DNA of 64,000 nucleotides from Escherichia coli (GTDB lineage Bacteria > Pseudomonadota > Gammaproteobacteria > Enterobacterales > Enterobacteriaceae), in the NCBI RefSeq assembly GCF_044324785.1, contig NZ_CP172127.1; one strand, 5' to 3'. Below, piece by piece: positions 1-4,492 of the stretch. The stretch's first letter is position 1; each line of letters starts with the position of its first letter. The notes below the pieces were generated by a model that saw nothing but the letters and a program-made list of their open reading frames with translations, was not told where the DNA came from and did no database searches. The position numbers were made by a program, and so were the translations under genes.

Positions 1-646
1 CCAGGGGGAAGGCGGTGTGGTGCCAGCCAGCAACGCATTTTTACAAGGTCTGCGTGAATTGTGTGACCGCCACAATGCGCTGTTGATTTTTGATGAAGTA
101 CAAACCGGCGTCGGACGCACCGGGGAACTGTATGCCTATATGCACTACGGCGTGACGCCCGATCTGTTAACTACCGCCAAAGCGCTGGGCGGCGGTTTCC
201 CGGTCGGTGCGTTGTTGGCAACCGAAGAGTGCGCCAGTGTGATGACCGTTGGCACTCATGGCACCACCTATGGTGGTAATCCGCTAGCCTCGGCGGTAGC
301 AGGCAAAGTGCTGGATCTCATTAACACGCCAGAGATGCTTAATGGCGTTAAACAGCGTCACGACTGGTTTGTTGAGCGCCTTAATACCATTAATCACCGC
401 TACGGTTTGTTCAGTGAAGTTCGCGGCTTAGGTTTGTTGATTGGCTGTGTACTGAATGCCGATTACGCCGGGCAAGCGAAACAGATCTCTCAGGAAGCGG
501 CGAAAGCAGGCGTGATGGTACTGATTGCGGGTGGCAACGTGGTGCGTTTTGCGCCTGCGCTCAATGTCAGCGAAGAAGAGGTGACGACCGGACTGGATCG
601 CTTTGCAGCTGCTTGCGAACACTTTGTGAGCGGAGGTTCATCATGA
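1..646 (+). CDS. astC: succinylornithine transaminase AstC, C-terminal portion (5' end lies outside window)
   Basis: ORF track 17..646 translation matches the C-terminus of E. coli AstC/ArgD-family aminotransferase; stop TGA 644-646; frame continues to window edge. Confidence 0.93.
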
Positions 647-1677
647 TGGTCATCCGTCCCGTTGAGCGCTCAGATGTCCCGGCGCTGATGCAGCTTGCCA
701 GCAAAACGGGCGGCGGCCTGACGTCGCTTCCCGCCAATGAAGCCACGCTTTCGGCGCGTATCGAAAGGGCAATCAAAACCTGGCAAGGCGAACTGCCCAA
801 AAGTGAGCAGGGCTATGTGTTCGTGCTGGAAGATAGCGAGACAGGCACCGTGGCGGGGATTTGTGCCATTGAGGTGGCAGTTGGGCTGAACGATCCCTGG
901 TACAACTATCGCGTCGGCACGCTGGTTCACGCTTCGAAAGAGCTGAATGTCTATAACGCGCTGCCGACGCTGTTTCTCAGTAACGATCACACCGGCAGCA
1001 GCGAGCTGTGCACGCTGTTTCTCGACCCGGACTGGCGCAAAGAGGGCAACGGCTATTTGCTGTCGAAATCGCGCTTTATGTTTATGGCGGCTTTTCGCGA
1101 CAAGTTTAATGACAAAGTGGTTGCCGAAATGCGCGGGGTGATTGACGAACACGGCTATTCACCGTTCTGGCAAAGCCTCGGTAAACGCTTCTTTTCGATG
1201 GATTTTAGCCGCGCCGATTTTCTCTGCGGCACCGGGCAAAAGGCATTTATTGCAGAACTGATGCCGAAACATCCGATCTATACCCACTTTTTATCCCAGG
1301 AAGCCCAGGACGTCATCGGTCAGGTACATCCGCAAACCGCGCCTGCCCGTGCGGTGCTGGAGAAAGAAGGTTTTCGCTACCGTAACTATATCGACATCTT
1401 TGACGGCGGGCCGACGCTTGAGTGTGACATCGACCGCGTGCGTGCCATCCGTAAAAGTCGGCTGGTGGAAGTGGCAGAAGGGCAGCCTGCGCAGGGCGAT
1501 TTCCCGGCCTGCCTGGTTGCCAATGAAAATTATCACCATTTCCGCGTGGTGCTGGTGCGTACCGATCCAGCGACCAAGCGTTTGATTTTAACCGCCGCAC
1601 AACTCGATGCCCTCAAATGCCACGCCGGGGATCGCGTTCGTCTGGTGCGCCTGTGCGCAGAGGAGAAAACAGCATGA
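643..1677 (+). CDS. astA: arginine N-succinyltransferase AstA
   Basis: ORF 613..1677; true start taken as ATG 643 (protein [11 protein letters not shown]..., 344 aa); ATGA overlap with astC stop. Confidence 0.95.
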
Positions 1678-3152
1678 CTTTATGGATCAACGGTGACTGG
1701 GTGACGGGCCAGGGCGCATTGCGTGTGAAGCGTAATCCGGTATCGGGCGAGGTGTTATGGCAGGGCAATGATGCCGATGCCGCTCAGGTTGAGCAGGCTT
1801 GTCGGGCTGCCCGTGCGGCGTATCCGCGCTGGGCGCGGCTCTCCTTTGGCGATCGTCAGGTAAGAGTTGAACGCTTTGCCGGATTGCTGGAAAGCAATAA
1901 AGCCGAATTAACCGCGATTATTGCCAGAGAAACGGGTAAGCCGCGCTGGGAAGCGGCAACCGAAGTGACGGCGATGATCAATAAAATCGCGATATCAATT
2001 AAGGCGTATCACGTTCGTACCGGCGAGCAGCGTAGCGAAATGCCGGACGGCGCGGCGAGCCTGCGACATCGCCCGCACGGCGTGCTGGCGGTGTTTGGGC
2101 CGTATAATTTCCCTGGTCATTTGCCGAACGGACATATCGTTCCGGCATTGCTGGCAGGTAACACCATTATCTTTAAACCCAGCGAACTGACACCGTGGAG
2201 TGGCGAAGCGGTAATGCGTTTATGGCAGCAGGCTGGCTTGCCGCCGGGCGTGCTGAACCTGGTGCAGGGCGGGCGTGAAACGGGTCAGGCGCTGAGTGCG
2301 CTGGAGGATCTCGACGGCTTGCTGTTTACCGGTAGCGCCAATACTGGCTACCAGTTGCATCGTCAGCTTTCCGGTCAGCCGGAGAAAATTCTCGCCCTCG
2401 AAATGGGCGGCAATAACCCGCTGATTATCGATGAGGTGGCGGATATCGATGCCGCTGTCCATCTGACCATTCAGTCGGCATTTGTCACAGCCGGGCAACG
2501 CTGCACCTGCGCCCGCCGTTTATTGCTGAAAAGCGGGGCGCAGGGCGATGCGTTTCTTGCTCGTCTGGTTGCCGTCAGCCAGCGATTAACGCCGGGCAAC
2601 TGGGATGACGAACCGCAGCCGTTTATTGGCGGGCTAATTTCTGAACAGGCCGCACAGCAGGTGGTTACTGCCTGGCTGCAACTGGAAGCGATGGGCGGAC
2701 GAACCCTGCTTGCGCCGCGCTTATTACAAGCAGGGACATCGTTGCTGACGCCGGGGATCATTGAAATGACAGGCGTTGCTGGCGTACCAGATGAAGAGGT
2801 GTTCGGACCGTTATTGCGCGTCTGGCGTTATGATACTTTCGATGAAGCGATTCGGATGGCGAACAACACCCGCTTCGGACTCTCTTGCGGTCTGGTTTCC
2901 CCCGAGCGGGAAAAATTCGATCAACTGCTTCTTGAGGCGCGGGCGGGGATTGTTAACTGGAACAAACCGCTTACCGGCGCTGCCAGTACCGCGCCATTCG
3001 GCGGCATTGGCGCTTCCGGTAACCATCGCCCCAGCGCCTGGTATGCCGCAGATTATTGTGCCTGGCCGATGGCGAGCCTGGAGTCGGACTCGTTAACATT
3101 GCCCGCCACACTTAACCCCGGGCTGGATTTTTCCGATGAGGTGGTGCGATGA
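1674..3152 (+). CDS. astD: succinylglutamate-semialdehyde dehydrogenase AstD
   Basis: ORF 1617..3152; start set to ATG 1674 (MTLWINGDW..., 492 aa); aldehyde dehydrogenase family; ATGA overlap with astA stop. Confidence 0.95.
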
Positions 3153-4492
3153 ACGCCTGGGAAGTCAATTTCGACGGGCTGGTAGGGCTGACGCATCATT
3201 ACGCGGGCCTGTCGTTTGGTAATGAAGCCTCTACCCGTCACCGTTTTCAGGTCTCTAACCCGCGACTGGCGGCGAAACAGGGCTTACTGAAAATGAAAAC
3301 CCTTGCCGATGCGGGATTCCCCCAGGCCGTGATCCCGCCGCACGAGCGTCCGTTTATACCGGTTTTACGTCAGTTGGGATTCAGTGGTAGCGATGAACAA
3401 GTGCTGGAAAAGGTTGCACGCCAGGCACCGCACTGGCTTTCCAGCGTTAGTTCCGCTTCGCCAATGTGGGTAGCCAATGCGGCAACGATCGCGCCATCTG
3501 CCGATACGCTGGATGGCAAAGTGCATCTCACCGTTGCTAACCTGAACAATAAATTTCACCGTTCGCTGGAAGCCCCTGTCACCGAATCGCTGTTAAAAGC
3601 GATTTTTAACGACGAAGAGAAATTTAGCGTCCATTCGGCGTTGCCGCAGGTAGCGTTGCTCGGTGATGAGGGGGCGGCAAACCACAATCGTCTCGGCGGT
3701 CATTACGGTGAACCGGGTATGCAACTTTTTGTCTACGGGCGAGAAGAGGGCAATGATACCCGGCCTTCCCGTTATCCAGCGCGGCAGACTCGCGAAGCCA
3801 GCGAGGCGGTGGCAAGGCTGAATCAGGTGAATCCCCAACAGGTGATTTTCGCCCAGCAAAACCCGGACGTTATCGACCAGGGCGTTTTTCATAATGACGT
3901 GATTGCCGTGAGTAACCGCCAGGTGCTGTTTTGCCATCAACAGGCGTTCGCTCGACAGGTGCAGTTACTGGCAAATCTACGTGCGCGGGTGAACGGTTTT
4001 ATGGCGATAGAAGTTCCGGCGACTCAGGTTTCCGTGTCGGATGCGGTGTCTACGTATCTGTTTAACAGCCAGTTACTGAGCCGCGATGATGGTTCCATGA
4101 TGTTGGTGCTGCCTCAGGAGTGTCGGGAACACGCAGGAGTATGGCGTTATCTCAATGAACTCCTTGCCGCTGACAACCCGATTAGCGAACTAAAAGTTTT
4201 TGATTTACGTGAAAGTATGGCAAACGGCGGCGGCCCGGCGTGCCTGCGGTTGCGCGTGGTGTTGACAGAAGAAGAACGCCGGGCGGTGAATCCGGCGGTG
4301 ATGATGAACGATACGCTGTTTAATGCACTCAATGACTGGGTGGATCGTTACTACCGCGATCGTCTTACTGCGGCGGATCTGGCTGATCCGCTGCTGCTGC
4401 GCGAAGGGCGGGAAGCACTGGATGTATTGAGCCAATTACTGAATCTCGGTTCGGTTTATCCGTTCCAGCGCGAGGGAGGGGGAAATGGATAA
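3149..4492 (+). CDS. astB: N-succinylarginine dihydrolase AstB
   Basis: ORF 3149..4492, 447 aa, [25 protein letters not shown]...; ATGA overlap with astD stop. Confidence 0.95.

Follow-up and report, generated by a model that had tools for sequence, protein, structure and literature searches.

The junctions of trpE-trpD and trpB-trpA have the form TGATG, with a spacing of -1, and translational coupling is the usual reading of spacings of -4 and -8. Both trp pairs, together with galT-galK, are classical coupled pairs (PMC6728339, PMC7538156). In these pairs, as at the ast junctions, upstream termination lies near the next AUG; downstream translation depends on that termination. Their spacings are -1 or short and positive, unlike the -4 and -8 of ast, and their reporter coupling ratios are modest, at 1.7-7 fold (PMC7538156). 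In pairs of the -4 NTGA type, coupling relies on the final ~15-100 nt of the upstream gene (PMC6728339, PMC10666635). The E. coli pairs hyfHI, ydbH/ynbE, and menDH belong to this type and, like ast, combine an ATGA overlap with a Shine-Dalgarno (SD) motif inside the upstream reading frame. One of the five ATGA pairs studied by Huber et al. 2019, bioBF, is uncoupled and initiates de novo (PMC6728339), and reinitiation at -8 overlaps is reported to be less efficient than at -4 or -1 (PMC10666635). Subunits of heteromeric complexes are 4.5-fold overrepresented among gene pairs with short overlaps (PMC10666635). Unlike that enriched class, the Ast proteins are separate pathway enzymes; heteromeric complexes of them are not known, and all 4 of 4 pairs are entered as 'CMPLX not' (PMC10666635 supplement).

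The closest described system is the astCADBE operon of E. coli K-12 itself, which is handled in the literature as one regulated operon whose promoters, sigma54/NtrC, sigmaS, and ArgR-controlled, lie 5' of astC (PMC3590144). The ast spacings of -4/-4/-4/-8 are tabulated in the supplement of Huber et al. 2023 (PMC10666635). Huber et al. 2019 cloned the K-12 astD/astB junction, from -99 to +30, between glpD and gusA. With a premature upstream stop the downstream translation became extremely low or undetectable, which was termed "strong coupling", and removal of the SD motif lowered reinitiation by 60-90% (PMC6728339). Publications already cover the ast operon, its gene boundaries, its spacings, and the coupling at astD/astB.

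The window, the whole stretch of 64,000 nucleotides of E. coli DNA analysed here (contig NZ_CP172127.1), begins inside this operon. Five genes on the same strand, each matching its own enzyme family, are found in the order astC-astA-astD-astB-astE:

1..646, + strand: 3' part of astC (succinylornithine transaminase), cut by the window start; stop TGA 644-646
643..1677, + strand: astA, arginine N-succinyltransferase, 344 aa; NF007770 equivalog, 731.9 bits (cut-off 521), residues 1-344 on model positions 1-344
1674..3152, + strand: astD, succinylglutamate-semialdehyde dehydrogenase, 492 aa; TIGR03240 equivalog, 847.7 bits (cut-off 579.3)
3149..4492, + strand: astB, N-succinylarginine dihydrolase, 447 aa; TIGR03241 equivalog, 804.9 bits (cut-off 538.3)
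4485..5453, + strand: astE, succinylglutamate desuccinylase, 322 aa; TIGR03242 equivalog, 481.6 bits (cut-off 305.65)

AstA, AstD, AstB, and AstE gave full-length matches above the NCBIfam equivalog cut-offs. The 214 residues of AstC inside the window matched positions 189-406 of the NCBIfam model PRK12381/TIGR03246, and it is only the truncation of the protein by the window start that puts this match under the cut-off; the gene is named astC in the annotation of both E. coli N3 and K-12. The gene identities given by the first-pass annotation were therefore right on both the NCBIfam matches and the annotation, and the region is the known astCADBE arginine succinyltransferase operon of E. coli. 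It aligns with K-12 b1744-b1748 gap-free at 97.1% identity and is present in 5,421 of 5,426 complete E. coli genomes. The E. coli locus order is xthA-astCADBE-spy; spy lies at 5783, 3' of the operon, collinear with N3 and K-12, while xthA and the operon promoter region are outside the window. The K-12 operon (b1748-b1744) equals the window in genes, order, locus, spacings (-4/-4/-4/-8), and the astD/astB sequence from SD motif to ATGA. Only a few substitutions distinguish the two in each junction fragment, for example at 628, 632, and 669 for astC/astA and at 4483 for astB/astE.

Within the operon, a sequence scan found promoter-like and terminator-like sites at a frequency not above chance, and an Rfam scan of 1-5800 returned no RNA family. 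One further element follows astE:

5460..5481, + strand: 9-bp GC-rich hairpin CCCGCAGAA-ATCA-TTCTGCGGG, 7 nt past the astE stop

This hairpin is probably the end of the ast transcript. The terminator scan missed it because its T tail is weak and does not satisfy the T-run criterion of that scan.

All four junctions of the operon overlap, and each of the four downstream genes has its own SD motif in the upstream reading frame, 5-8 nt before the start:

643..646, + strand: astC/astA junction ATGA (-4); astA ATG 643-645, astC TGA 644-646
1674..1677, + strand: astA/astD junction ATGA (-4); astD ATG 1674, astA stop 1675-1677
3149..3152, + strand: astD/astB junction ATGA (-4); astB ATG 3149, astD stop 3150-3152
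4485..4492, + strand: astB/astE junction ATGGATAA (-8); astE ATG 4485-4487, astB TAA 4490-4492
632..636, + strand: SD motif GGAGG for astA, in the astC coding end, 6 nt before ATG 643
1660..1665, + strand: SD motif GAGGAG for astD, encoding Glu-Glu of the AstA C-terminus, 8 nt before ATG 1674
3136..3141, + strand: SD motif ATGAGG for astB, with the GAGG core at 3138-3141, in the astD coding end
4475..4479, + strand: SD motif GGAGG for astE, 5 nt before ATG 4485

The three ATGA junctions, first noticed in the first-pass annotation, were confirmed by direct reading of the sequence. The same annotation had astE begin 8 nt before the astB stop; the overlap is indeed 8 nt when the stop codon is counted, but the astE ATG starts 5 nt before the first base of that stop, which falls within astE codons 2-3 (GAT AAT). 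The PGAP/RefSeq boundaries are identical in strain N3 and K-12 MG1655. It can also be seen that astA opens with ATGATG (643-648). A start at its second, in-frame ATG (646) would make the overlap a TGATG of 1 nt; astA thus offers the trp-type geometry as an alternative, and the astC/astA overlap holds with either ATG. The astB motif ATGAGG is the one marked and mutated by Huber et al. 2019 (PMC6728339 supplement). At the overlapping junctions of the species listed, an SD core was present in 34/50 cases for astC/astA, 66/71 for astA/astD, 45/50 for astD/astB, and 7/8 for astB/astE; the background is 5.9% of random coding windows. The motif GAGGAGAAAA at the astD SD is near-invariant across the Enterobacteriaceae listed.

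Compared with 2 of the 40 other same-strand neighbouring pairs of the window, overlap at 4/4 ast junctions corresponds to a hypergeometric p of 1.1e-4, a value to be read with the knowledge that junctions in one operon are not independent. Of the 2,987 unidirectional pairs in E. coli, 707 are spaced from -8 to +6 (PMC10666635), and a stop/start overlap is seen in >30% of gene pairs in polycistronic mRNAs (PMC7538156). If junctions were independent, a run of four overlaps would have a probability of 0.3^4 = 0.008, or ~1% per five-gene operon. The run is worth remark, yet its genome-wide class is common, and it is best described as notable but not exceptional.

The first-pass annotation took the overlaps to indicate tight translational coupling through the whole operon. 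For astD/astB this reading stands on the K-12 dual reporter (PMC6728339), and the window is identical to K-12 there over 40 nt that begin 25 nt before the ATG and end 14 nt past it. Extended to the whole operon, the claim exceeds the evidence, since bioBF initiates de novo, reinitiation at -8 is reportedly weaker, and the ast genes have their own SD motifs and, at astD, a comparatively open predicted initiation region. Coupling at astC/astA, astA/astD, and astB/astE can be reasonably inferred. The reading that we prefer, at a probability of roughly 80%, is that astCADBE would be translated from one mRNA with four overlapping starts, the translation of each gene depending largely on that of the preceding one. 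A ribosome ending astC, astA, astD, or astB would stop 0-5 nt from the next AUG, and it would have crossed, and so unfolded, the SD motif that precedes this AUG by 5-8 nt. The next cistron would then be started mainly by reinitiation of that ribosome or its 30S subunit, or by a fresh 30S subunit that binds the site just unfolded by the terminating ribosome; the choice between reinitiation and unfolding at the ast junctions is one that we infer. The results of PMC7538156 count against reinitiation as the main route, not against coupling as such. As to origin, the overlaps would most likely have arisen by cheap mutational steps and been locked in later; it is less likely that they stem from a requirement for fixed enzyme stoichiometry. 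The Ast enzymes are not in complexes, so the customary selective rationale for coupling is missing.

The predicted cost of opening the region from -18 to +12 is 16.3 kcal/mol at astC/astA, 11.1 at astA/astD, 16.0 at astD/astB, and 19.1 at astB/astE, against 14.8 +/- 4.0 for ordinary ast coding sequence and 10.3 +/- 4.0 kcal/mol for 45 genes of the window that initiate independently. The junction costs lie above those of the independent starts (one-sided Mann-Whitney p = 0.011), with predicted folds that differ between the window and K-12. None of the junction fragments was more structured than its shuffles (z = -0.94, +2.04, -0.16, and -0.41, none of them significant); the astA/astD fragment is less stable than its shuffled controls and has the lowest opening cost of the four. 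The window differs from K-12 at 3056, 3059, and 3062; these three changes give the astB initiation region another predicted pairing partner, and the astB AUG has a predicted unpaired probability of 0.01 in the window against 0.80 in K-12. Because predicted junction structures differ even between these two, the structural argument is weak. Given its own SD motif and its comparatively open predicted initiation region, astD may initiate independently.

The species comparison comprised 80 listed loci, with Salmonella not among them. Candidate AstB-AstE fusions (spacings of about -966 to -990) were rejected, as the tblastn alignments had run past stops and a stop was present in every locus. The astA/astD spacing is -4 in 57 of 79 listed loci and -1 in 12 of 79, reaching a maximum of +6 in any lineage, and this junction is tight in all gammaproteobacteria sampled (-17 to +6). 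Serratia, Yersinia, Acinetobacter, and Vibrio share with E. coli the order C-A-D-B-E, the tight astA/astD junction, and the Met-Met start of astA, whereas their astC/astA, astD/astB, and astB/astE junctions are non-overlapping, with the genes 5-270 nt apart; some Vibrio have an extra ~1 kb between astC and astA. Overlaps at astC/astA and astD/astB were found only in Enterobacteriaceae and Erwiniaceae among the loci listed; a variant of astD/astB with a spacing of -14 also occurs. The -4 spacing of astC/astA holds in every Enterobacteriaceae locus scored and in 14/15 Erwiniaceae-like loci, the remaining one being -1.

The -8 overlap of astB/astE has a still narrower distribution, occurring only in Escherichia and Citrobacter among the loci listed (7/7 plus the window), and the spacing is +8 to +12 in 26/29 other Enterobacteriaceae listed. 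In the junction alignments, AstB of these other Enterobacteriaceae ends in ...YPFQR*, followed by a spacer of 8-12 nt, and the window carries a lineage-specific extension:

4472..4489, + strand: AstB C-terminal tail EGGGNG

Its first codon, GAG at 4472-4474, sits where most relatives have TAA, TAG, or TGA, and one locus (L002) has GAA. Citrobacter has the same AstB extension, with the tail ERASHG. As judged from these alignments, the six-residue tail is the translated ribosome-binding site of astE after loss of the ancestral astB stop TAA: this loss would cause read-through of the astE SD motif and ATG, leading to both the tail and the -8 overlap. From the distribution of the four junctions, we lean slightly towards viewing the operon as a dated, stepwise record of overlap accumulation, in which astA/astD came first, two -4 overlaps followed, and the -8 overlap came last. 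The tight astA/astD junction would be ancient, as it occurs in all Gammaproteobacteria sampled. The -4 overlaps of astC/astA and astD/astB would have arisen at the base of Enterobacteriaceae plus Erwiniaceae, with astC/astA taking a TGA that pre-existed in the conserved ATGATG of astA, and a single substitution of the astB stop, TAA to GAA and later GAG, would have occurred in the Escherichia/Citrobacter lineage. As the Ast enzymes are not complex subunits, operon compaction here would favour a one-way mutational ratchet over selection for stoichiometry.

The rival explanation that survives best, although we consider it unlikely, is that the overlaps are neutral by-products of stop-codon loss and intergenic shrinkage, each downstream gene being translated mostly through independent 30S binding to its own strong SD motif. 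The overlaps would then persist only since undoing them harms a start or stop codon, and true coupling would be slight, at astA/astD and astB/astE at the least. Such an origin fits the good SD motif at every downstream gene, the astD initiation region as the most open (11.1 kcal/mol; z = +2.04), and the astB/astE overlap as a single-codon change from a +10 spacer that already held the SD motif. It also fits an AstB tail not conserved between Escherichia and Citrobacter, enzymes that are not complex subunits, the bioBF precedent (PMC6728339), the less efficient -8 reinitiation (PMC10666635), and the review by Brown & Wade, which credits the abundance of -4 overlaps to their ease of evolving. 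However, strong coupling has been shown at astD/astB (PMC6728339), the mean predicted junction structure is like that of coding sequence and above that of the independent starts of the window, and no reversal of the -4 astC/astA overlap occurred in the Enterobacteriaceae loci scored.

It is very improbable that the overlaps are annotation artefacts, with true starts further downstream and non-overlapping genes. Some ORF calls are ambiguous, as astA could open at TTG 613, ATG 643, or ATG 646 and astD at ATG 1617, GTG 1653, or ATG 1674. For astA, however, the sole downstream option, ATG 646, would still share 1 nt with the TGA, and the Met-Met start is kept in 76/78 listed loci, non-overlapping species included. 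The next start of astD is a GTG at codon 10, past the conserved I-N-G-x-W and lacking an SD motif. ATG 3149 is the sole in-frame start of astB from the ORF opening at 3140 to codon 49, and ATG 4485 of astE has no other in-frame start before codon 33. Conservation begins at residues 3-5 of AstB and AstE and from there holds in about 95% of the 77-80 loci listed, AstB residues 5-11 being conserved in 75-76 of 80. The start column is ATG in nearly all of the 77-80 species listed. Alternative starts downstream, which the first-pass annotation had raised as the case against coupling, are excluded by this N-terminal conservation across the 80 loci listed. The idea that programmed frameshifting or read-through of the stop, promoted by the ATGA and ATGGATAA junctions, yields fused Ast polypeptides in place of separate enzymes is scarcely credible: it draws circumstantially on astB and astE being in frame in lineages with a +9 spacer, where stop loss would fuse them, against a stop codon at every locus scored, no slippery heptamer or stimulatory structure seen at the four ast junctions, and proteins that each match a full-length single-enzyme model.

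The ast overlaps matter little past confirmation. What is added is clean comparative support for the annotated ast starts, and the recognition that for three of the four junctions coupling is an assumption, the published demonstration being that of astD/astB. The astB/astE junction serves as a worked example in which a -8 overlap would come from one stop-codon substitution. An operon so rich in overlaps, whose products are not complex subunits, bears on the debate over whether gene overlaps reflect selection for stoichiometry or the ease with which they evolve.

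The arginine succinyltransferase (ast) operon and its surroundings are laid out as follows.

1-5453, + strand: 3' part of astC, then astA, astD, astB and astE (NCBIfam models, RefSeq)
643-646, 1674-1677 and 3149-3152, + strand: ATGA at the astC/astA, astA/astD and astD/astB junctions
4485-4492, + strand: ATGGATAA at the astB/astE junction
5783: spy, downstream of astE

The four proteins downstream of AstC matched their NCBIfam equivalog models end to end, with scores of 731.9 bits for AstA (cut-off 521), 847.7 for AstD (579.3), 804.9 for AstB (538.3) and 481.6 for AstE (305.65). 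Of 5,426 complete E. coli genomes, 5,421 carry the first 6 kb of the window at 95-99% identity, and the ast region is 97.1% identical, gap-free, to b1744-b1748 of K-12 MG1655. Strain N3, the closest genome (L001, L082 and L084), is collinear with the window over its full 64 kb at 99.3-99.9% identity, with 18 gap positions in 50 kb. Six genes are annotated as frameshifted in N3 (astE, chbC, cedA, ydiY, espL1 and ydiJ), suggesting assembly indel errors or real pseudogenisation in that strain; the window has intact copies of astE and espL1. The GC content of the operon (1-4000) is 56-57.5%, compared with 39-54% in the remaining window. A perfect 9-bp GC-rich hairpin, CCCGCAGAA-ATCA-TTCTGCGGG, lies at 5460-5481, 7 nt past the astE stop, with TATTAAGTT after it. 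Judged from its sequence it is probably the operon terminator, with a T tail too weak for the consensus terminator scan.

The overlaps reported by the first-pass annotation were recovered by direct reading of re-extracted coordinates. Each ATGA combines an upstream TGA stop with a downstream ATG, and the 8-nt overlap runs from the astE ATG at 4485 to the astB TAA at 4490-4492. The earlier wording, which put the astE start 8 nt ahead of the astB stop, is loose: the overlap measures 8 nt with the stop codon included, and the ATG precedes the first base of TAA by 5 nt. All junction boundaries are identical in the RefSeq annotations of N3 and K-12.

Alternative downstream starts, on which the earlier claim had been staked, were checked at all four genes and excluded. 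In astB, whose reading frame opens at 3140, no in-frame start other than ATG 3149 occurs before codon 49; AstB residues 5-11 (E-V-N-F-D-G-L) are kept in 75-76 of the 80 species listed. In astE the frame opens at 4443, ATG 4485 is the sole start before codon 33, and conservation begins at residue 3. For astD, the next start downstream is a GTG at codon 10, beyond the conserved I-N-G-x-W motif, and the upstream candidates ATG 1617 and GTG 1653 have no Shine-Dalgarno (SD) motif. Overlooked earlier was that astA opens with ATGATG. With its second ATG, in frame at 646, as the start, the geometry would be the other classical one (TGATG, spacing -1), so astC and astA overlap under either ATG. Met-Met is kept in 76 of the 78 AstA loci listed, including species with the first ATG in the intergenic spacer, which argues that this first ATG is the functional start. 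Mis-annotated starts are thus rejected on the in-frame start inventory and N-terminal conservation.

A scan with AstB, one genome per species, yielded at least 80 loci from Enterobacteriaceae, Erwiniaceae, Yersiniaceae, Acinetobacter, Vibrio and others; stops and starts were called per junction and alignments inspected. The order astC-A-D-B-E was found in all 80 loci listed.

Spacing from upstream stop to downstream start in the loci listed (nt; negative values are overlaps)
astC/astA: -4 in all Enterobacteriaceae and in 14 of 15 Erwiniaceae-like loci (the remaining one -1); +5 to +110 in Yersiniaceae and Acinetobacter; +61 in Psychromonas; about 1.05-1.24 kb in three Vibrio loci (L066, L067, L076)
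astA/astD: tight in all lineages; -4 in 57 of 79, -1 in 12, others -17 to +6
astD/astB, Enterobacteriaceae: mostly -4; -14 in the Enterobacter/Lelliottia/Leclercia group; +2 in Buttiauxella
astD/astB, Erwiniaceae-like: mostly -4; -1 in three Pantoea-type loci; -14 in one Pantoea; +17 and +21 in Tatumella
astD/astB, other lineages: +9 to +239
astB/astE: -8 only in Escherichia and Citrobacter (7 of 7, plus the window); 8-12 nt spacer in 26 of 29 other Enterobacteriaceae

The Vibrio distances imply an extra gene inserted between astC and astA. Among the tight junctions, astD/astB varies most (loci L013, L014, L017, L018, L050, L057, L058, L012 and L056; -1 loci L037, L039 and L046, the last being the 'Enterobacter cancerogenus' M004 genome). 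The 14-nt overlap in Enterobacter, Lelliottia, Leclercia and some relatives is ATGAAAGCGCGTGA, not ATGA. The astC stop TGA sits within the ATGATG that opens astA; since ATGATG is found in all lineages, this stop was already in place when the overlap arose.

In spacer-bearing relatives AstB ends ...YPFQR, followed by TAA, TAG or TGA, an SD and ATG. Codon 4472-4474, at most relatives' stop position, is GAG in E. coli and GAA in a divergent Escherichia (L002), so that one substitution in the stop of an ancestor with a +10 spacer suffices. Past 4474 the astB frame crosses the SD and ATG and ends at the TAA of astE codons 2-3 (GAT AAT). The resulting six-residue tail, EGGGNG (4472-4489), is the translated astE ribosome-binding site; Citrobacter AstB has the same extension with an unrelated tail, ERASHG, indicating that the tail is not conserved as protein.

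Within the window, all 4 ast pairs overlap, compared with 2 of 40 other same-strand neighbours:

37623: btuE/btuD, spacing -1
48497-48500, - strand: ydiS/ydiT, spacing -4

The hypergeometric probability is 1.1e-4, although junctions of one operon are not independent. Both in E. coli and in prokaryotes generally, -4 is the commonest spacing, with -1 and -8 next (PMC10666635; review PMC12548453); 707 of 2,987 unidirectional E. coli pairs lie within -8 to +6 (PMC10666635), and among pairs on polycistronic messages more than 30% have a stop that overlaps the next start (PMC7538156). From this commonness, a four-overlap run would arise in about 1% of five-gene operons, assuming independence. The run is therefore notable, yet expected a few times per genome.

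Other features of the window were also recorded.

6471-7046, + strand: ves, and 7006-7893, - strand: cho; convergent, 3' ends overlapping by 41 nt (7006-7046)
8001-8043, - strand: ES036/CssrF, between cho and nadE (Rfam, above gathering score, as for the three RNAs below)
26193-28091, - strand: intact 632-aa ORF adjoining thrS in a low-GC segment (39% versus about 50%); its N3 counterpart is annotated as frameshifted type III effector EspL1, and it looks like a horizontally acquired espL1, intact in the window
30543: ATT start of infC, 3 nt past the thrS stop; a start codon already known to be unusual and autoregulated
31905-32029, + strand: Phe leader
35870-36028, + strand: STnc540, overlapping the ihfA 3' end and btuC upstream region
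60705-60812, - strand: RprA sRNA

The overlaps had been read as tight translational coupling through the whole operon. This is the standard interpretation, and it has been shown for astD to astB with K-12 reporters; at astC to astA, astA to astD and astB to astE coupling is inferred. The astD/astB pair was one of five native ATGA pairs picked by Huber et al. 2019, who placed its -99 to +30 fragment between glpD and gusA (PMC6728339). A premature upstream stop made gusA translation extremely low or undetectable, termed strong coupling by the authors, and deletion of the SD (ATGAGG) lowered reinitiation by 60-90%; local structure was predicted near the astB initiation region (PMC6728339). The window equals K-12 from 25 nt upstream to 14 nt downstream of the astB ATG, a stretch holding the SD and ATGA. 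Another ATGA pair, bioBF, showed no coupling (PMC6728339), and -8 overlaps gave less efficient reinitiation in Huber et al. 2023 (PMC10666635). Whether the same ribosome reinitiates or unfolding admits a fresh 30S subunit divides the literature (PMC6728339 versus PMC7538156; review PMC12548453). Saito et al. 2020 argue against reinitiation as the main mechanism; depletion of ribosome recycling factor left coupling unchanged, overlapping pairs included (PMC7538156).

The -99 to +30 RNA fragments of the junctions fold no better than shuffled controls (z = -0.94, +2.04, -0.16 and -0.41 for astA, astD, astB and astE). Predicted opening energies for -18 to +12 were 16.3, 11.1, 16.0 and 19.1 kcal/mol in the same order, in line with ast coding sequence (14.8 +/- 4.0) and above the level of 45 independently initiated genes of the window (10.3 +/- 4.0; one-sided Mann-Whitney p = 0.011). 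These values imply initiation sites that are not kept open, which fits dependence on the upstream ribosome, astD being the likeliest exception. The unpaired probability of the astB AUG is 0.01 in the window versus 0.80 in K-12, and individual helices are not conserved between them. The modelled structures thus point only weakly to ribosome dependence.

Frameshift fusions between Ast proteins were rejected. Under the main rival reading, the overlaps would be by-products that have become entrenched, with initiation at some junctions, astA/astD and astB/astE in particular, relying largely on the SD of the downstream gene itself.

Among the loci listed, an SD core stands at 34 of 50 overlapping astC/astA, 66 of 71 astA/astD, 45 of 50 astD/astB and 7 of 8 astB/astE junctions. 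Retention so far above the 5.9% background of random coding windows shows that SD-assisted initiation from within the coding sequence of the preceding gene is under selection.

The overlaps and their -4/-4/-4/-8 spacings are already known and catalogued: these values appear for K-12 astC/astA, astA/astD, astD/astB and astB/astE in the gene-pair table supplementing Huber et al. 2023, which marks all four pairs as non-complex-forming (PMC10666635). Only mildly new is the junction history by lineage, notably the origin of the -8 overlap and the AstB tail in a single substitution. Coupling remains the best-supported reading, in which each terminating ribosome on the polycistronic mRNA would deliver or expose the next SD and AUG, and translation of astA, astD, astB and astE would depend substantially on the preceding cistron.
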